A DNA stretch of 50,755 nucleotides from a virus (lineage: Duplodnaviria > Heunggongvirae > Uroviricota > Caudoviricetes), in the IMG/VR virus record IMGVR_UViG_2908959467_000003, positions 1 to 50,755 of that record; one strand, written 5' to 3'. The position numbers were made by a program, and so were the translations under genes. The stretch's first letter is position 1, and the number at the start of each line of letters is the position of its first letter. Positions 40,381-49,627 of the stretch are shown here, piece by piece. The notes below the pieces were generated by a model. That model had not been told where the DNA came from, did not search any database, and worked only from the letters and a program-made list of their open reading frames with translations.

Positions 40381-41556
40381 ATGCTGCTATCTGACATCCA
40401 AATAAAAAGAGCAAAACCGAAGGACAAACCCTATACGCTTAACGATGGTATGGGGCTATCACTCCTGATCGACACAGCGGGCAGTAAAGGCTGGCGTTTT
40501 CGCTATCGCTTTGCAGGTAAGCCTAAGATGATTTCCTTTGGCGTATATGGCGATGTGTCGTTGGCACAGGCACGTACCAAACGTGATGAAGCGCGTTCGA
40601 TGTTAGCCAAAGGGATAAACCCAAGTGAAGCCAGAAAAGCAGATAAGATTGCTTTGCAGTTCGCGCATGAGAACAGCTTTGAGTCTGTGGCCAGAGAATG
40701 GCACTCATCGAAAAAAGCCACCTGGTCAGAGGGTTATGCAAAAGAGGTTCTCAATTGTATGGAAAAGGATATTTTTCCTTTTATCGGCCAGCGCCCAATT
40801 GAGCAGATTGAACCATTAGAACTGCTAACCGTCCTGCAAAAAATAGAGAAAAGAGGTGCGCTAGAGCAAACCAGTAAGATCCGCCGCCGCTGTGGTGAAG
40901 TGCTTCGTTATGCTGTTGCCACTGGTAGAGCAAAGTATAATTTTGCACCCGATTTAGCTATCGCACTCAACAAACCTAAAACCCAACACTTCCCGTTCCT
41001 GACTGAAAGCGAGTTGCCCGAGTTCGTTAATGCTCTGGATAACTATCAGGGCAGTTTAGTTACCAAATACGCCACGCAGCTGTTGATGCTAACAGGCGTG
41101 CGAACAATTGAACTACGTGCAGCGGAATGGGCTGAGTTTGATTTAGATAATGCCTTATGGGAGATCCCCAAAGAACGGATGAAGAAACGCCGCCCCCATC
41201 TGGTTCCGTTATCAACTCAGGCGATCAATATCCTGAAAAAGCTGCAAGAAATAACAGGGAATTACAGCCTCGTTTTCCCTGGCCGAAATGACGTCAGGAA
41301 ACCAATGAGCGAAGCCAGCATCAACAAAGTGATAAAACTACTGGGTTATCACGGTCGGTTAACGGGTCACGGTTTCAGGCATACCATGAGCACCATCTTG
41401 CATGAGCATGGGTTTGAAAGTGCCTGGATTGAAATGCAGCTTGCGCATGTTGATAAGAACTCTATTCGAGGTACTTACAATCATGCGCAATATATTAAAG
41501 ATCGACAAGTAATGATGGAATGGTACGCTAGCTTATTAAATACGACCTGCTATTAA
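40381..41556 (+). CDS. Tyrosine integrase, P4 family (391 aa)
   Basis: MLLSDIQIKRAKPKDKPYTLNDGMGL.., ..RRRCGEVLRYAVATGRAKYNFAPDLA.., ..HGFRHTMST..; paralogous to the int at 1..1158. Confidence 0.85.
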   Translation: MLLSDIQIKRAKPKDKPYTLNDGMGLSLLIDTAGSKGWRFRYRFAGKPKMISFGVYGDVSLAQARTKRDEARSMLAKGINPSEARKADKIALQFAHENSFESVAREWHSSKKATWSEGYAKEVLNCMEKDIFPFIGQRPIEQIEPLELLTVLQKIEKRGALEQTSKIRRRCGEVLRYAVATGRAKYNFAPDLAIALNKPKTQHFPFLTESELPEFVNALDNYQGSLVTKYATQLLMLTGVRTIELRAAEWAEFDLDNALWEIPKERMKKRRPHLVPLSTQAINILKKLQEITGNYSLVFPGRNDVRKPMSEASINKVIKLLGYHGRLTGHGFRHTMSTILHEHGFESAWIEMQLAHVDKNSIRGTYNHAQYIKDRQVMMEWYASLLNTTCY

Positions 41557-42486
41557 ATCCAGCATGAAACAAATATGGTGAGTAATTTGATACTGTTTGT
41601 TTTTTGGCAACCCAGGGAAATGCCTTACAGTTGGTTGACTATTGTAATAATAATAGTTAAGACCAATGTTGCTGCCAAACTGGGTTGGATGTTGGGGAAC
41701 AAGATTTGTAATTTGATCTGAAACATCTAAAAATTTTGCAGTAACATTTGAACTTCCTCGTTGCGTGTTGCTTGATACAAAATGACGAATCCAAACTGTA
41801 TTCGCTTGTAAATTCTTGAACACCAAATGTGCGGCAACAGCAGAAGGTTGACCACCTCCAAGATCTAGTACCTGGCCAGTAATTGTATAATCGCCAAATC
41901 CTAAGTAATTTTGTCCCACGAATTGATGTGCGTGCGTGAAAAGTTCCGGCCCATTATAATCAGCATTTTTTGCTAACTTTCTAAAGTTATCGCTAATAAT
42001 AATTAACTTCGACAAAGGAAGAAGAGCGCACTGATTAGGAAGCATTTTATTATTTAAAACAACATGATAACTAATCAATTGATTTGTCGCCAACAACTGA
42101 ATATCAGAGTTGGATAATGATGGATTATCATATAGAAGTGCAACTCGTCTATTTAAGTTAGCATTCAACCAATTATTAATATCATTAATCGTTGTATTGG
42201 GCTGAATAAGATATCCAGAGATGATATTGTTTTTATTTGTTAATACACTTGATAAATTTTGATTTAAAGTTAAGACGTTATTGTGTGAAGAAAAATCTTC
42301 CTGATAAGGATTAAGGATAACAATTATGTCAGAATTCCAAACATTTAAACATGTTAATAAATTTCTCGTATTGACGTTAATTGGTTCTAAAATTGGTAGC
42401 AGACCATTTAGGCTAACTCCCTTCGCAACGAGGTCCCTAAGGCATAATAACTCTGTACTTCTCGCATACAAATATGGGCTATACAT
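41536..42486 (-). CDS. Cargo protein B (316 aa), unknown function; second gene of an AT-rich two-gene operon
   Basis: N/S/L-rich low-GC ORF, 21 nt after gene A; no recognised motif; 3' end overlaps the convergent int by 21 bp. Confidence 0.6.
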   Translation of the reverse strand: MYSPYLYARSTELLCLRDLVAKGVSLNGLLPILEPINVNTRNLLTCLNVWNSDIIVILNPYQEDFSSHNNVLTLNQNLSSVLTNKNNIISGYLIQPNTTINDINNWLNANLNRRVALLYDNPSLSNSDIQLLATNQLISYHVVLNNKMLPNQCALLPLSKLIIISDNFRKLAKNADYNGPELFTHAHQFVGQNYLGFGDYTITGQVLDLGGGQPSAVAAHLVFKNLQANTVWIRHFVSSNTQRGSSNVTAKFLDVSDQITNLVPQHPTQFGSNIGLNYYYYNSQPTVRHFPGLPKNKQYQITHHICFMLDLIAGRI

Positions 42487-42507
42487 AACTTACAACTCCT
42501 GAGGATA

Positions 42508-43389
42508 TCAACAAATTTTAATTTTTACATCCATCAAATTCATGATGAATTCTTTTTGCTTTCTTGATAATGGTGTTGCATAACCTAAAACACGTAAACA
42601 TGCTGGAAGAGAATAAATATAATCCAAAAAAACTTTGTCGTTACATCTTTTTTTCATAGCAGAGATAAAGTATTTATTTGCTATGTTTAATGGCATCTGC
42701 ATGAATATCTCTTTACAATATTCATAAACCAATCCATTAGGCATATTTATTTTAGTTGAAGTGTAATCTTCTATTATAGCTAAGAACTCTTCCTTTCTAA
42801 GAACTGAAAACAAGCTGTCACTTTTAATATAATCAATATTTGAATCTGCCTCCTTAATGACACTCAATTGATCTTTTTTATTCAAAACCATAACTCCCAC
42901 TCTGGGGAGATTTAAAGCACAATATTTACTTGCATACTCTGGATGTGTAACTATATACACTTTATCAAAAACATCCAAATAATCAGGGGCTTGAGTAATC
43001 AACCTTTTTGGTGAATCATACTCTGTCTTAATCTCGTAAGCTGTAGACGTACCATTAAACACCGCAACATCCACTATAGAGTTTTTAATTGGTAACTCTA
43101 TGGACGACGAACTTGTTTTTGGGCTGTGCTTACCGAATATTATTTTATTGACAAGTGCTGTCTTATAAACATATTCATTTCTATAATTCAGACGCAAAAA
43201 ATCATATAATGATGTAAATAAATCCCTTAGTGAAATCTCATGTTCATTATTATCATTGTTTGAAAACAGTGTTTCATAGCAGTAAGAATCAAAACTCCCA
43301 AATAAATCCGAAATATCCTTACCTTTTGCTAAGGATGAAAAAATGGGGCGACGGAAAAATTTAGCATATTCCTTTTTATTATGACTCAT
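42508..43389 (-). CDS. Cargo protein A (293 aa), putative PD-(D/E)xK nuclease-fold protein
   Basis: ..SIELPIKNSIVDVAVFNGTSTAYEIKTEYD.. gives the E / hydrophobic-D / E-x-K arrangement; AT-rich. Confidence 0.6.
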   Translation of the reverse strand: MSHNKKEYAKFFRRPIFSSLAKGKDISDLFGSFDSYCYETLFSNNDNNEHEISLRDLFTSLYDFLRLNYRNEYVYKTALVNKIIFGKHSPKTSSSSIELPIKNSIVDVAVFNGTSTAYEIKTEYDSPKRLITQAPDYLDVFDKVYIVTHPEYASKYCALNLPRVGVMVLNKKDQLSVIKEADSNIDYIKSDSLFSVLRKEEFLAIIEDYTSTKINMPNGLVYEYCKEIFMQMPLNIANKYFISAMKKRCNDKVFLDYIYSLPACLRVLGYATPLSRKQKEFIMNLMDVKIKIC

Positions 43390-44342: not shown

Positions 44343-44408
44343 CGTTCTGTGCCCTATACTGTTGCCCGCCAGAAGAAGGGATTTGGATCCCTACCTCTTG
44401 TTCTGAAC

Positions 44409-44598
44409 GTGTAACACTGGTAACACGTGTAACGCTATTGATTTAAAAGGATTTAATCTGTTACCAGTTAGCAAAATCAAGAGGTAACGCGTGGTAACAC
44501 ACCATTTTTTGTTACCTCTGTTACCAGTCAGTATTTTTGACTGGTAACACTGAAGAACCGCATCAGTAACGGGTGTTACCTCTGTTACCAGTGTTACC
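44409..44598. repeat. Iteron cluster: at least 12 copies of (G)GTAACAC / GTGTTACC in about 190 bp, P4 crr/ori-like
   Basis: Repeats read directly; motif TGTTACC is one base from the recalled P4 alpha-binding octamer TGTTCACC. Confidence 0.65.
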
Positions 44599-44624
44599 TC
44601 ATAAAAATAAGACTCACGCGATAA

Positions 44625-47312
44625 TCACTCAGGTTCAGCGCTTCCCAGTACCTGTGTATTGAACTGGTACACACGTTTAAGCCCTATTTCTGGCAGGCGA
44701 ATGCTGTTTTGCGTCCGGCCATCTTCACCGGGTTTCAGCCAGCCCGCGTCCACACACAACCTGGCCACCTTACGCGAGTCAAATCCCTTACAGATCTCCT
44801 TCCAGCCTGACGGGAGAACGTAGAACGTCACAACCGGCTCTGTCACGTTGTCTCCTTTATCGACTTTTCTGAATCCCATCATTGAAACAGGCCGGTTCCT
44901 GTCGTCATTCCAGTCAGCAAACCGACTGAACTGATTACGCGTCATGAAGTCCCGAACCTGTTCAAGTGCCGCTTTATCTTCCTGATTAGCTGTATGGCCC
45001 CGGTCAGCCATCCATGCAGCCAGACAGCTTTGAGCGGCACGAAAGGCCTCTCCCTCCGGCCATCCTGTGATGCCCGCTTTTGTGGCCAGCTCCCCGGCCA
45101 TCGCAACCAGAGCAAAACGGGTAACAGCCCGGCCAACCTGATTCCCGGCATTTTCCGGCGTCAGCCTTCGGGTATACTCTTTCAATAAGGCTTTCGCCTG
45201 ACTGGTCAGTTCCGGCAGATCAGCGGTCAGGCAATACAGCCAGTCGCGGAATGGTGCACCATGATAATGCGCTACGTGCTGCTCAAGATGCTCAGCCAGG
45301 GTTTTCCCGCTACTGAAGCCATGAAGTTCTTCAAACACGCCATACTTGCCCGAATCGCTTGGGATCTGGATCATTCTGACCTCAACCCCGGCATACGTAC
45401 GTTCCCCGGCGCTTGCCGCATGCTCTACCAGTGACAGTTCCCCGGTAGACAGAAACAACAGATTCCAGCGGTTGGTTTCCCTTACCGAACCATCTGTTCT
45501 GGCTCTGGCTTTGCCCTGCCCGTTAGCCAGCATATAAGCGATATTCCCCGCCTCCCTGCCGTCAACCTCCCGGATTTCATCCAGCATCAGCGTGGCATCA
45601 TTGCGGCGGCTCGCCGTTCCTTCTAAGGCATTCCCCGTCGCCCGCCACGTATGCCAGAAATCTGTTCCACCACATACTGATGCAGCCACTTTCATCGTCG
45701 TGGTTTTACCGTCTGTGGATTCCCCTTTGAGGTGATAACCTCCACCGCCGATACCAACCAGTTTCAGAAGGGGGGCAGCAAATGCCAGACTCACCGCAAA
45801 GGCAAGACGGGCATTCTTTATGCAATAACGGCCTATATTTTCACGCCAGCCCTCTGATGTGCCGCTGACACGAAAATCACGCCCCTGCACACTCGATGTT
45901 TGTAAGATGACTGACTGGGCTTCGCGCCCTATCACTTCATCCTGGAGAACGTAAACCCCGCCGTGCCAGCCAGTTTTATTCACACAGGTTACTTTTCTGT
46001 CCGGTTTACACAGCGAGATATATTCCATCAGGAATGCTCTGGCCATGCCATTAATGTTGATGTAAGAAAGCCCGTTAACCAGCAGAACGCGGCGCAGTTC
46101 TTCCCCGCTACCGCCCAGCATCTCCATCGGCATTGCCCATTTACGGCTGTTTCCGTTGGTATCTTCCCATTCCAGCAAACGCCCGTAATTACTTCCATCA
46201 GCATCACTGGTGATTGCCGTCACCCGCAACGGACTGCAAATTTTGATATTACGTATCTCTGTATCACCATCAGACTTATTAACCAGCTTGTCGTACCACA
46301 AATATTCTTTTGTCAGCCGGAACCCTTCTGGTAAACGGGTCTGCCCTTTGCCATGCAGCGTCATTTCTTCACGAAAGGCATCTCTCGCCCGTTCTTTCCC
46401 CACTTCCTGCCGATAATCATCCCAGTCAGCCTTATGGCGTACCGGAGGGAGCGTTACCCAGCCATCCACCGCTTTGGCGGCTTTCTCTGCCTGAATACGC
46501 CCGGTGTTTTCTTTGCCGTCAGCCAGATCATTATCTCCGGCCAGAATGATCCGAGTTTCCGGCCAGCGTTTTCGGATCTGCTCCGTCACCTTCAGTAAAT
46601 TGGTGGCAGCGACAGCCGCCACGATCCATCCTTCAGTCAGCAGACTGACGGTAAGCGCCGTGGCAAAACCCTCAGTGATAATCACCTGTTCAGGTGTTTC
46701 AGCGGGTATATCGGTCAGGGCAATGAATGCGCCAGACAGCTGGCTACCGGGCAGCAGACTTTTATCCCCGTCAGGATTGATAAGCTGGCCACCAGTAATA
46801 TTCCCGGAAATATCCGTCAAAGGCAGCAGTAATGAACCGGTGGAAAATGTTATTCCGGCCAGATTCAAAGGCTGTGACAGCAAGGGAAGTGAATACCCGT
46901 GTAAGCCCTTATTTGTCAGATAGACCGGCTCACCATTGCAGGACTGCTGTCTGAGTCTGGTATATCGCTCCGCGCCCGCTTCTTTTCCTGCGGCCTTTTT
47001 CCTGGCTGGCAATGCGGGCTTCTCCTGTATTTCTGGTAATGCAAGCGCCTCAGATACCATCCCGGCGACTTCTTTTATCTTTCTTCCTGTCACCAGACGA
47101 ACCAGATCAAGACCATCGCCATGACCGCACTGATTACAAAACCACGTCCCTCGCCCCGCTTTATCGTCCAGTCGAAAACGATCTTTTCCACCACAGGCAG
47201 GGCAAGCCCCATGATGTCCTGCGGACGGTACTTTAATACCTAATGCTGACAGGATATAAGGCCAGCGCCCAATTGCAGCTCCGGAAATCGTGGATACAGA
47301 CGGTGTTTTCAC
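44625..47312 (-). CDS. Primase-helicase, P4 alpha-type (895 aa)
   Basis: N-terminal zinc-binding primase motif (CPACGGKDRFRLDD..WFCNQCGHGDG), central P-loop (GESTDGKTTT). Confidence 0.85.
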   Translation of the reverse strand: MKTPSVSTISGAAIGRWPYILSALGIKVPSAGHHGACPACGGKDRFRLDDKAGRGTWFCNQCGHGDGLDLVRLVTGRKIKEVAGMVSEALALPEIQEKPALPARKKAAGKEAGAERYTRLRQQSCNGEPVYLTNKGLHGYSLPLLSQPLNLAGITFSTGSLLLPLTDISGNITGGQLINPDGDKSLLPGSQLSGAFIALTDIPAETPEQVIITEGFATALTVSLLTEGWIVAAVAATNLLKVTEQIRKRWPETRIILAGDNDLADGKENTGRIQAEKAAKAVDGWVTLPPVRHKADWDDYRQEVGKERARDAFREEMTLHGKGQTRLPEGFRLTKEYLWYDKLVNKSDGDTEIRNIKICSPLRVTAITSDADGSNYGRLLEWEDTNGNSRKWAMPMEMLGGSGEELRRVLLVNGLSYININGMARAFLMEYISLCKPDRKVTCVNKTGWHGGVYVLQDEVIGREAQSVILQTSSVQGRDFRVSGTSEGWRENIGRYCIKNARLAFAVSLAFAAPLLKLVGIGGGGYHLKGESTDGKTTTMKVAASVCGGTDFWHTWRATGNALEGTASRRNDATLMLDEIREVDGREAGNIAYMLANGQGKARARTDGSVRETNRWNLLFLSTGELSLVEHAASAGERTYAGVEVRMIQIPSDSGKYGVFEELHGFSSGKTLAEHLEQHVAHYHGAPFRDWLYCLTADLPELTSQAKALLKEYTRRLTPENAGNQVGRAVTRFALVAMAGELATKAGITGWPEGEAFRAAQSCLAAWMADRGHTANQEDKAALEQVRDFMTRNQFSRFADWNDDRNRPVSMMGFRKVDKGDNVTEPVVTFYVLPSGWKEICKGFDSRKVARLCVDAGWLKPGEDGRTQNSIRLPEIGLKRVYQFNTQVLGSAEPE

Positions 47313-47719
47313 AGCAGCACCTCCTGACCTTCCGGCTTCACAAATTCAAAACCTTCGGGTAGTTCGCCATCAGGTGCTCCGAAAATAATATCCCGGTAAA
47401 CCTCACGCATCTCTGTGACACCAAAAACTGACAGGCGAATATTTTCTGACATAAAGCCTGGTTTAAGCATTTTTTCCAGTTTCTCTGCGGCCAGTATGCA
47501 ACCAGCATCAGCCCCAAACTCATTCACCCACGGCATTTCAATATGGTAAATAATATTACTCACCACTTTTTCGTGGGAGAGTTCTATTCGTTCGCCATCT
47601 TCAATATAAACAGGTTCATTATGAACACGCACCATTAAGGAAATGAATGCATCAGCAATGTAGTAGCGTAAGACTGCTGTTCGTAAAGCATGCGCCTTTA
47701 AATTTTGATTATTATTCAT
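47309..47719 (-). CDS. Hypothetical protein (136 aa) upstream of the primase
   Basis: Overlaps primase start; position analogous to P4 epsilon/orf151. Confidence 0.45.
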   Translation of the reverse strand: MNNNQNLKAHALRTAVLRYYIADAFISLMVRVHNEPVYIEDGERIELSHEKVVSNIIYHIEMPWVNEFGADAGCILAAEKLEKMLKPGFMSENIRLSVFGVTEMREVYRDIIFGAPDGELPEGFEFVKPEGQEVLL

Positions 47720-47948
47720 CGCGCATCACTCCCTTAATTGTGCTGGTTTCCTTAACAACGCCATCCAGTTGTTCGGCAATACAGGCCACTAAAGCCGCAG
47801 CGCCTTCCGCTGAAACAGTTCTCGCTCCATTCACTGTGGGCACGGACAAGACCTCTGCAAGAAACTCACTGGCCAGTGCCGCCCGTAACAGACGACTCTC
47901 CCCCTGTTCACTCAATATGCAGCCTTGCTTAAAATTCATGGATTTCAT
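47712..47948 (-). CDS. Hypothetical protein (78 aa)
   Basis: Operon member; no motif. Confidence 0.4.
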   Translation of the reverse strand: MKSMNFKQGCILSEQGESRLLRAALASEFLAEVLSVPTVNGARTVSAEGAAALVACIAEQLDGVVKETSTIKGVMRDE

Positions 47949-48148
47949 GCAACCACCTCCCCGGCTCTTTTCACAGGGATACGGGCAGCAAAGCTCAGGA
48001 TAAATTCAGTGGCAAGTTTAAGGCGTGCAGCATGCTCGCATTCTGCGATTACACGCACAGGGCGTGGACGGGCATCACGGTCTGTACGGCGGACAGCCAG
48101 AAAGACAAAGGTAAATTCAGGGTGAGATAAAGCAGGGACTGTAGCCAT
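47945..48148 (-). CDS. Small hypothetical protein (67 aa), first gene of the alpha operon
   Basis: ATG at 48148 with GAAGGAGG RBS; the longer track ORF to 48535 is an unsupported extension. Confidence 0.4.
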   Translation of the reverse strand: MATVPALSHPEFTFVFLAVRRTDRDARPRPVRVIAECEHAARLKLATEFILSFAARIPVKRAGEVVA

Positions 48149-48160
48149 AATGGCAACCTC

Positions 48161-48425
48161 CTTCAGATAGCGGGTAACGCTACCACCGGAGTTCCTACGC
48201 TCATGGGTGGTAGCCCAGACGGGGGTAGGAATACCGGCTCTGAAGGATACCGGCCAGCCCGAAAGCTGCCCCGCCTGGACTACCATAATTCTGATGATGT
48301 GGCGTAAAAAATAAAAAAATACAATCAGCCACCACACCATAAATTTTAGGTGAGTCAAAGCTGCGACACAAAAAAACACGCCTGGCGCGTGTAGTATCGC
48401 CTTCAGATAACACGGGTTCCTACGC
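48161..48425 (-). promoter_or_regulatory. Candidate RNA immunity region (P4 seqA/cI/seqC-like) with internal terminator
   Basis: Two direct copies of CTTCAGATA..GTTCCTACGC (48401..48425, 48161..48200) flank a reverse-complement copy (48225..48247); hairpin + U7 at 48370..48392. Confidence 0.4.
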
Positions 48426-48577
48426 CCGGCTGCCGATTTTGCGGCAACCTTTAAACTATATCCCGCGCATTCCTGGTGAGGCAAGAAATTTATAACCGAA
48501 AACTGATCATTGCCTGGATTAATTAACGCTGGCATGCTTAAGCCTCTGCTTAAAAATAGTTCTTCATTTTTCCTGAT

Positions 48578-48622: not shown

Positions 48623-49627
48623 TCAATCCGCAAACGTCAGGGCGCTCTCATCGACAGCCGCGTACAGTTCAGGTTCACCGAGTGCATAACCTTCATTGCG
48701 CAGGTAGGAATGCACGTATTCACTGCTTTCATCATCAAACTCAGCACGAAACCAGCGTGTTATCGCCTGAGTGTAAATATGCAGATTATCCAGCGTCGTT
48801 ACTGCCAGACGCTTACCCGGCATAAACGGGGGAATAAACGCAAAGCGGCCAGCAACAGAACTTGTAGCCATCTGTGCCGCATTCACATCAGACGGGCGGT
48901 CTGCGGCATTAAATAACTTCAGGCGTTGATGTGCTGCCAGCTCTGCCCCAACCAGTACAACCAGACGAGGATCTTCACGAAACTGCTCAGCAATAAGCTC
49001 TGTAATCAGATGGTTGGCCAGAGCATCAATATTTTTCCAGGTGCCAGTCTCTCCCAGAGTGACAGGCTCAGAGATGATTTGCTTTCCGTTCCCGTAGGCT
49101 TTCGCCAGTGCATGCCAGCCAATATTGACATCCTCGCCTTTTTTATTGATTTCCGGGTTTGTAGTATTTGCAATCGACACACCATTGAAACCGACCCGCA
49201 GCATGTCCAGCGCATATGCCTGGGCAAAAAAGCTCTCAACCGTTTTCTCAAACTCATCCGGCACGCCGGTATGGTAAATATGAGACATATCGGAATAGCT
49301 GATCCGGGCGCAGGTATCCGTCTCTGTCAGAAAGAACTCCGTACCATTGATTGCCATTTTTTTGTGGAAACGGCCACCATCCACACGTCCGGTATACAGT
49401 TCACTGGCACCAATATTGACGGCATTACCTGACACGGCGTTAACATCACGTAGGGTAATATTTTTAATAAGCCACCCGGATTCCAGAATTGAGGTACGCA
49501 GTATATTTTCAGTAGGTTCGCTTAATGCAAAGCGTCTGTTTGATTCTTCCTGATAGTTAGTGCCAGTGACGAATTTATTATGATAACGACGTGCTGCGTC
49601 CGGCCTTTCAGTTTTGAAGGCATACAT
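48623..49627 (-). CDS. P2 gpN-family major capsid-like protein (334 aa)
   Basis: Blocks alignable to recalled P2 gpN (GFNGV, ..IGW.., DALANHLITELIAEQFREDPRLVVLVG, LDNLHIY); from memory, unverified. Confidence 0.5.
   Translation of the reverse strand: MYAFKTERPDAARRYHNKFVTGTNYQEESNRRFALSEPTENILRTSILESGWLIKNITLRDVNAVSGNAVNIGASELYTGRVDGGRFHKKMAINGTEFFLTETDTCARISYSDMSHIYHTGVPDEFEKTVESFFAQAYALDMLRVGFNGVSIANTTNPEINKKGEDVNIGWHALAKAYGNGKQIISEPVTLGETGTWKNIDALANHLITELIAEQFREDPRLVVLVGAELAAHQRLKLFNAADRPSDVNAAQMATSSVAGRFAFIPPFMPGKRLAVTTLDNLHIYTQAITRWFRAEFDDESSEYVHSYLRNEGYALGEPELYAAVDESALTFAD

Follow-up and report, generated by a model that had tools for sequence, protein, structure and literature searches.

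RNA-Based Immunity in P4, P1 and Related Elements

In phage P4, the immunity factor is an RNA (PMC4825925), and the Rfam families isrK and C4 have been equated with its seqA site and its CI RNA, respectively (PMC3632133; PMC4825925). A comparable arrangement is found in the c4-icd-ant operon of phages P1 and P7, where an antisense RNA of family RF01695 is processed to a three-stem molecule carrying two recognition elements, a' and b' (PMC5320573). Its targets lie upstream (a1/b1) and at the icd ribosome-binding site (a2/b2), which b' occludes, and small loop differences set immunity specificity (PMC5320573). In Salmonella Gifsy-1, a full-length isrK element with its terminator is followed by a complementary C4-like RNA, STnc1160 (PMC4825925). 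Phage N15 has also been cited as using a structurally similar system (PMC3632133).

The window examined here, a 50,755-nt stretch of viral DNA (Caudoviricetes), carries a module of the same general build in the leader of a minus-strand operon. It shares with P1 and P7 the RF01695 family and the predicted three-stem RNA with its two recognition elements. Unlike the P1 operon, which controls the antirepressor gene ant, the operon in the window is concerned with replication, and the sequence similarity of P1-type plasmids to the leader is confined to the C4 portion. Gifsy-1 has the same succession of isrK, terminator and complementary C4-like RNA, yet there the short RNA activates orf45-anrP in trans, the setting is a lambdoid prophage, and an antiterminator is controlled. 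Phage phiKO2 and Klebsiella phages are 80-82% identical to the leader over the isrK and C4 parts, and the leader also matches regions upstream of ant in Stx phages. In these N15/phiKO2-type and Stx modules, however, the match is limited to the RNA parts (42-43% of the query), and other genes lie downstream. The closest counterpart is P4, with which the window shares homologous DNA, both RNA families and the order in which they occur.

Homology of the Leader to the P4 Immunity Region

The initial annotation had drawn attention to this leader through a bipartite motif, CTTCAG..TTCCTAC, present in three copies with the middle one inverted. A pattern search recovers all three, at 48401-48423 (upstream, plus strand), 48225-48245 (middle, minus strand) and 48161-48198 (downstream, plus strand). 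Allowing a gap of 5 to 25 nt, CTTCAG-N(5-25)-TTCCTAC occurs exactly three times in the 50.7-kb window, against 0.02 expected, and none of 100 shuffles reaches three copies, so the repeats are real and not a product of chance. Each box measures only 7-9 nt, which is the one point in favor of functionless coincidence. That explanation is already refuted by the count and by massive covariation among relatives, and it must also contend with the homology of these regions to characterized RNAs; its probability is practically nil.

Scanned in full against Rfam with the gathering thresholds, the window gave exactly two matches, both full length, on the minus strand and within the leader. One is to the C4 antisense RNA family RF01695 (81.1 bits against a gathering score of 45; model positions 1-87 of 87; E 2e-14), and the other is to isrK, RF01394 (69.5 bits against a gathering score of 50; positions 1-77 of 77, terminator included). 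When window positions 48100-48560 (minus strand) were compared with phage records by BLASTN, the top phage match was P4 (X51522, 8318-8707), with 70.5% identity over 363 nt, E 3e-42 and 79% of the query covered. The P4-homologous stretch runs from 48448 to 48139 on the minus strand, and its P4 partner is the segment historically annotated as 'cI gene product'. Scanned with Rfam, the P4 segment likewise yields isrK and C4, in the same order as in the window.

The BLASTN match, the shared Rfam pair and the published equivalence of these families with seqA and CI RNA together make the likeness to P4 one of homology. It is very probable that the leader is the RNA-based immunity region of an E. coli P4-like satellite prophage, homologous to that of phage P4, and the parallel with P4 immunity proposed in the initial annotation is borne out by BLASTN, Rfam and covariation alike. 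Conservation extends to the two promoter hexamers, hairpins 1 and 2 of isrK, the terminator and the stems of the C4 RNA. It further includes a seqC site lying over the Shine-Dalgarno sequence of an Icd/Kil-like gene, a long open reading frame (ORF) nested in the kil frame, and a primase/helicase gene at the operon end. The system is of a known kind and its mechanism is not new, with a specificity allele, GUAGGAA/UCUGAAGG, that differs from P4's. The allele seems new as judged against P4 only; phiR73 represents the other characterized P4-type immunity.

Promoter, IsrK-Like RNA and Terminator

Read along the minus strand, the leader begins with a promoter and hairpins, continues through GUAGGAA...UCUGAAGG, a hairpin with U7 and a spacer, and then enters a structured segment that carries CCUUCAGA...UUCCUAC. 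The seqC site follows as GUAGGAA...UCUGAAGGAGG, with an ATG 8 nt beyond. The antisense RNA gene therefore sits inside the leader of its own operon, in the order promoter, isrK, C4 and then the first gene at 48148 (minus strand). The leader had been given as 390 bp long and non-coding. Measured from the predicted transcription start (about 48448), the distance to the ATG is about 300 nt, and from the stop codon of the upstream capsid gene (48623) it is 474 nt. A 196-codon ORF (48535..47945), in frame with the first gene, also crosses it. Neither length agrees with the 390 bp given, and the leader is not purely non-coding.

The predicted sigma-70 promoter lies at 48455..48484 (minus strand) and reads TTGCCT - 18 nt - TATAGT, with 9 of 12 consensus matches in a consensus scan. 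It resembles PLE, and both hexamers are invariant columns in the alignment of the window with P4. Transcription is predicted to start near 48448, and the isrK model begins 7 nt downstream of the promoter. These features suggest that the PLE-like promoter at 48484..48455 is active.

The IsrK-like, or seqA, RNA occupies 48371..48448 (minus strand; RF01394) and comprises hairpin 1, hairpin 2, a single-stranded linker and an intrinsic terminator. Its predicted fold agrees with the Rfam model, and the stems are kept in 61 relatives. According to model and fold, seqA box 1, GUAGGAA (48417..48423, minus strand), lies in the 8-nt loop of hairpin 2, and box 2, UCUGAAGG (48400..48407, minus strand), occupies the unpaired linker just before the terminator. 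The terminator itself (48369..48392, minus strand) was recognized by the consensus scan, by the isrK model and in the 61 relatives, and consists of a 6-bp GC-rich stem, a 5-nt loop and U7. This agrees with the earlier report of a hairpin and U7 after the upstream copy: the stem-loop spans 48392..48376 and is followed by TTTTTTT.

The terminator lies between PLE and cI, as in P4, and is conserved in relatives. We take the element at 48392..48369 to be the counterpart of P4 t1 as described by Briani et al. 2000, where t1 is said to serve CI autoregulation; that work is cited in PMC4825925. Between the terminator and the C4-like RNA lies a spacer (48291-48370, minus strand) in which a long hairpin, AUGGUGUGGUGGC...GCCACAUCAU, is possible in the full-leader fold. 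Relatives have spacers that differ in length by 18 nt or by 45 nt, in each case a multiple of three, and in the window the spacer from t1 to the CI RNA is 27 nt shorter than in P4.

The C4-Like RNA and Its Targets

The C4/CI-type antisense RNA gene covers 48203..48290 on the minus strand (RF01695). The mature RNA is predicted to extend from a GGU motif to the end of the closing stem, 48284..48208, a length of 77 nt with both ends placed by analogy. The GGU (48284..48282) stands at the foot of the closing stem, and RNase P cleaves the P1/P7 C4 precursors at GGW (PMC5320573). A small RNA had been anticipated around 48215..48260; one is indeed predicted there, but it is larger than that interval. 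Its computed fold (minimum free energy -47.8 kcal/mol, z = -5.3) reproduces the Rfam model, with a 17-bp closing stem around two hairpins and the boxes left unpaired.

Model and fold place seqB box 2', CCUUCAGA (48239..48246, minus strand), in the 12-nt loop of the third stem, which is the second hairpin, and box 1', UUCCUAC (48225..48231, minus strand), in the single-stranded joint before the closing stem. These correspond to the b' and a' positions of the P1 C4 RNA, respectively (PMC5320573). In the seqC target, motif and complementarity locate box 1, GUAGGAA, at 48192..48198 (minus strand), while box 2, UCUGAAGGA, lies at 48159..48167 (minus strand) over the Shine-Dalgarno sequence AGGAGG. 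An overlap of the downstream copy with the Shine-Dalgarno sequence of the first gene had been reported earlier and is directly visible, with UCUGAAGGAGG, AGGAGG at 48162..48157 and the ATG at 48148.

All three sites match perfectly in the window. The complementarity, put at 7+7 nt in the initial annotation, is present, but it is longer than that: it amounts to 7+8 pairs at seqA and 7+9 pairs at seqC, where box 2 is one pair longer. When the whole 310-nt leader is folded as one molecule, the seqA-seqB duplex is predicted in cis.

Covariation of the Pairing Sites

Relatives were collected by scanning viral contigs with the conserved isrK 5' hairpin, which gave 120 loci, 96 distinct 500-nt leaders and 87 leaders that could be parsed as isrK-like. 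In 84 of these 87, a reverse-complement copy of the hairpin-2 loop lies downstream and is followed 25-40 nt later by a direct copy. Pairs were counted in an alignment (A2) of 61 distinct P4-like leaders, the window and P4 included. A search with the C4 loop pattern GGCCGGTATCCN7GCCGGTAT found one match in viral contigs and, in genome contigs, only 11 chance matches in unrelated phyla.

The middle element had been proposed to pair with both outer copies, and the conservation of these pairings now supports it; the outcome that would have told against the proposal, a lack of conservation or covariation in homologous elements, is decisively contradicted. Across the 61 leaders, 99.7% of cells are paired in the 15-pair seqA-seqB duplex and 99.1% in the 16-pair seqB-seqC duplex, and each duplex has 12 pairs in which both partners have changed. 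When the columns are slid by 1-3 positions as a control, only 40-51% (seqA-seqB) and 37-48% (seqB-seqC) of cells are paired, and 0 of 500 shuffles reach the observed covariation score for either duplex. The pairing of seqA box 1 with seqB box 1' is 100% in the 61 relatives, with compensatory changes in 6 of 7 pairs, a figure that is partly true by construction because box 1 was a selection criterion for the set. Only 3 of the 87 leaders failed this criterion, and box 2 was not selected on. Box 2 pairs in 99.4% of cells with seqA (compensatory changes in 6 of 8 pairs) and in 98.4% with seqC (6 of 9 pairs).

The intramolecular scaffold behaves differently from the boxes, showing little variation and some compensatory changes in the C4 stems. 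Scaffold stems are 95.2% paired overall, and all 27 C4 scaffold pairs are 100% paired among the 61 relatives. A constant RNA frame bearing variable specificity determinants would be expected to show this pattern. A hairpin between the two seqC boxes is only 72% paired in A2, probably owing to alignment gaps.

The same data bear on an alternative drawn from Gifsy-1, in which the terminated transcript (48448..48371) would open the long transcript in trans and activate downstream translation, a role beyond that of a target for the C4-like RNA. The full-length isrK match with its terminator would suit such a role, and published work describes IsrK as a dual small and messenger RNA that activates orf45-anrP translation, with the C4-like RNA STnc1160 downstream of isrK in Gifsy-1 (PMC4825925). 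The module is nonetheless closer to P4 than to Gifsy-1, with 70.5% identity over the leader and the gene order kil...alpha, and the covariation reflects selection on seqA-seqB and seqB-seqC pairing. As a replacement for P4-type immunity, IsrK-type activation is therefore unlikely; as an additional activity, it could be compatible with it.

Diversity and Specificity of the Recognition Boxes

Pairwise alignment with P4 shows how the boxes of the two modules differ. Box 1 is GUAGGAA here and GUGAGAA in P4, while box 2 is UCUGAAGG here and UUCACAGG in P4, so that 2 positions in box 1 and 4 in box 2 differ in each of the three sites. The differences are identical at all sites, with matching changes in seqB, and the stems are conserved. 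Cognate duplexes have computed energies of -28.4 kcal/mol (seqA) and -35.1 kcal/mol (seqC), compared with -14.4 and -23.6 kcal/mol for crosses with P4 partners. Conserved flanks, which stems normally keep unavailable, account for much of this residual cross-pairing energy. A difference of just 4 nt, in the a' loop that determines specificity and in its targets, separates the heteroimmune phages P1 and P7 (PMC5320573). With six positions per site differing from P4, against four nucleotides in that pair, heteroimmunity is predicted here as well, and the element is most likely heteroimmune to P4.

Box diversity extends well beyond these two alleles. Among 73 distinct modules, we counted 9 box-1 types, 23 box-2 types and 38 combinations; the 61 P4-like leaders alone contain at least 5 box-1 alleles and at least 12 box-2 alleles in many combinations. 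For several box-1/box-2 allele pairs, each of the four possible combinations occurs. Where leader backbones are nearly the same, almost all differences fall in the boxes, and they always affect the three sites jointly. Between leaders L031 and L033, for instance, 18 of 45 box positions and 3 of 292 others differ (Fisher p 6e-15), and P4 differs from L031 at 6 of 45 box positions and 3 of 292 others. Mean pairwise diversity is 0.36 in box columns (26-32, 42-49, 234-241, 249-255, 282-288 and 315-322 of A2, loci L015-L134) and 0.12 in scaffold columns. These coordinated changes must also keep the eta reading frame open.

The contrast between box and scaffold diversity, together with the many combinations, speaks for a combinatorial RNA address that is subject to diversifying selection. 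We give roughly even odds to the proposal that the two boxes form a combinatorial address code under strong diversifying selection, in which GUAGGAA/UCUGAAGG defines its own immunity group. A switch at all three sites may proceed through patchy gene conversion or through stepwise compensatory mutation. This reading extends, in principle, what is known from P1/P7 and P4/phiR73, and no survey of box-allele diversity was found in the searchable literature. The comparative data suggest that the immunity types encoded by RNA in P4-like satellites form a large repertoire, which could serve the typing of satellites and the study of how three-site RNA specificity evolves. By setting immunity, the module would determine which satellites can coexist or superinfect.

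The Nested Reading Frame and the Controlled Operon

The first gene of the operon (47945..48148, minus strand) encodes an Icd/Kil-like protein of 67 aa, compared with 65 aa for Kil in P4, and shares 53% identity with kil, the C-terminal part of the P4 ORF. It matches NCBIfam NF033153 (phage_ICD_like) with 68.1 bits against a cut-off of 25 over residues 12-59. The same frame is open upstream as an eta-like nested ORF of 196 aa (47945..48535, minus strand), which starts upstream of the promoter and crosses the RNA module from end to end; its last 67 codons contain the entire Icd-like domain. In the 61 leaders, the kil frame is open through the module in 60, compared with 1 and 0 for the other two frames, which contain on average 4.7 and 2.6 stop codons per leader. 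In 58 of the 61, an ATG precedes the 5' end of isrK, and leader lengths differ by multiples of three. Dismissing the 196-aa coding sequence (CDS) as a plain over-extension error is ruled out by the frame being open in 60 of 61 relatives.

P4 offers a parallel for this arrangement. Forti et al. 1999 reportedly described kil and eta as nested P4 genes in the same frame, with kil (65 aa) the first gene after PLE and under immunity control. The same study is said to give eta a length of 197-199 aa, with a start upstream of PLE and translation only from the late promoter PLL, and to have found that eta translation prevents Rho-dependent termination at timm. By position, frame and size, we take the 196-aa ORF to correspond to the eta of Forti et al. 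1999. It is probably the counterpart of P4 eta, and the region would then be dual RNA- and protein-coding.

A late promoter of the PLL type was sought in the window and none was located; no TGT-N12-ACA dyad lies upstream of the eta-like ORF. The only such dyad in the element is upstream of delta, and the window-wide count is below chance. Upstream genes on the same strand could supply read-through transcription into the eta-like frame. They encode an excisionase-like helix-turn-helix (HTH) protein, a 286-aa protein and a P2-family capsid protein.

The long ORF also raises the possibility that the immunity factor is the 196-aa protein and that the repeats are mere by-products of its coding sequence. 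Its frame is open in 60 of 61 relatives with leader lengths varying by multiples of three, it is covered by phrog_6928 (E 3.5e-57), and it is annotated as a CDS in RefSeq. The 'transcriptional repressor' label of phrog_6928 recurs in the P4 RefSeq record, and the NCBI pipeline PGAP annotates the 196-aa ORF as one 'Icd-like' CDS. Against this, the changes at the three sites preserve base pairing, G-U wobble included, and not amino acids, and the two covariance-model matches are well above their gathering scores. The Icd-like domain, moreover, is confined to the last 67 codons, and the P4 immunity factor itself is RNA (PMC4825925). An eta-type read-through frame that is translated and coexists with the RNAs accounts better for the open frame, and a protein factor is very improbable.

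Protein labels are common on DNA of this type. C4-encoding DNA is widely annotated as protein, under names such as 'ash family protein', 'transcriptional repressor' and several 'transcriptional regulator' families of PHROG, which match only residues 72-144 of the 196-aa ORF. In the RefSeq record for the locus (E. coli E62), an RNA feature is absent. The locus should carry two RNA genes, IsrK/seqA and C4/CI, where a single 196-aa 'Icd-like' CDS now stands, and related DNA is labeled 'ash family protein' or 'transcriptional repressor' in many records.

The rest of the operon (44625..47948, minus strand), assigned by domain search, encodes proteins of 78 and 136 aa and an alpha-like primase/helicase of 895 aa with Zn_Ribbon_Prim, Toprim_3 and DUF927 domains. 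Several features of this layout depart from P4. The delta gene comes after alpha, the alpha product is a DUF927 protein of 895 aa, and directly upstream of the leader stands a capsid gene of the P2 family, with no sid or psu found. With an organization unlike that of P4, regulation around the module may differ as well.

Proposed Mechanism

The sequence analysis itself establishes the homology, the RNA families, the complementarity with its covariation, the terminator, the Shine-Dalgarno overlap and the conserved open frame. In the scheme set out here, RNA processing, the termination mechanism, autoregulation, the role of eta and heteroimmunity are modeled on work with P4 and P1. The constitutive promoter (48484..48455, minus strand) would produce a leader of about 300 nt that presents seqA first, with box 1 in a hairpin loop and box 2 in the linker right before the terminator. 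Transcripts that read through would contain the tRNA-like, three-stem C4/CI RNA, which is probably excised by RNase P at GGU 48284 and trimmed at its 3' end to about 77 nt. Its exposed CCUUCAGA and UUCCUAC would then pair with seqA and seqC. The C4-like RNA is thus predicted to be expressed in the element and to act as its repressor.

Pairing at seqA would increase termination at the upstream terminator and so autoregulate the RNA. At seqC, pairing would cover the ribosome-binding site of the Icd/Kil-like gene, block its translation and lead to premature termination. In P4, the sites of premature termination by CI RNA are presumably t1, t4 and the Rho-dependent timm. The replication genes up to the alpha-like primase would in this way stay silent in the lysogen, and likewise in a same-type element that superinfects it. 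Transcripts starting further upstream would be translated across the region through the long eta-like frame and would escape control.

The Element, Its Distribution and Its Neighborhood

E. coli E62 (NZ_CP022393) carries the leader with 100% identity, 430 complete E. coli genomes carry it with 99% or more, and 2812 of 5426 genomes have a match of some kind to the module. Genes found in the element encode an integrase, the Zn-ribbon/Toprim/DUF927 primase, an Ogr/Delta protein and the excisionase-like HTH protein. Among the element's ORFs, neither sid nor psu was recognized, and the window ends inside the element. When the whole element was compared with phage records by megablast, no close relative emerged; the only match was to the attP region of the neighboring HK620/Sf6-type prophage.

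A defective element whose features are intact and whose immunity circuit lies idle would account for part of this picture. It would fit the unusual gene order, the failure to find sid or psu among the ORFs, and a neighboring prophage that is of HK620/Sf6 type and not a P2-type helper. Decay of this kind is quite unlikely, given that all element ORFs are intact, that 430 complete E. coli genomes share the leader at 99% identity or more, and that all three sites are perfectly matched. In addition, IsrK-like elements of P4-like prophages in S. Typhi were required in a transposon screen (PMC3632133). A functioning P4-type immunity region remains the preferred reading.

Several further features of the surrounding DNA deserve mention. 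The P2-family major capsid gene directly upstream of the leader (48623-49627, minus strand) matches PF05125 (E 1e-66), with its product scoring slightly under the TIGR01551 equivalog cut-off; it is unusual for a P4-like element to have a capsid homologue of its own. Positions 44396-44612, in the interval from the primase gene end to delta, hold dense direct and inverted TGTTACC/GGTAACA repeats, which may be iterons of a replication origin or a crr-like site. The TGT-N12-ACA dyad (44399-44416) lies about 60-75 nt upstream of the Ogr/Delta start (44342) and, by its position alone, looks like an activator site of the kind in the late promoters of P2 and P4.

A gene pair of the sce7725 and sce7726 families (41536-43389, minus strand) stands between delta and the integrase gene, at a location that corresponds to a defense hotspot of P4-like satellites. 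The sce7726-family protein (42508-43389) matches the PADLOC candidate defense model PDLC02989 (E 1e-18). Positions 1-40221 of the window belong to a prophage whose end by the satellite integrase is 97-99% identical to the attP/TorI region of HK620, Sf6 and IME10, a match that makes a P22-like prophage the direct neighbor of the P4-like element. The window yielded no tRNA gene. Just past the window end, in E. coli E62 (L001, 6480-6530), the AT-rich region upstream of the element's excisionase-like gene contains a (CCCAG)n tandem array with about 10 units.
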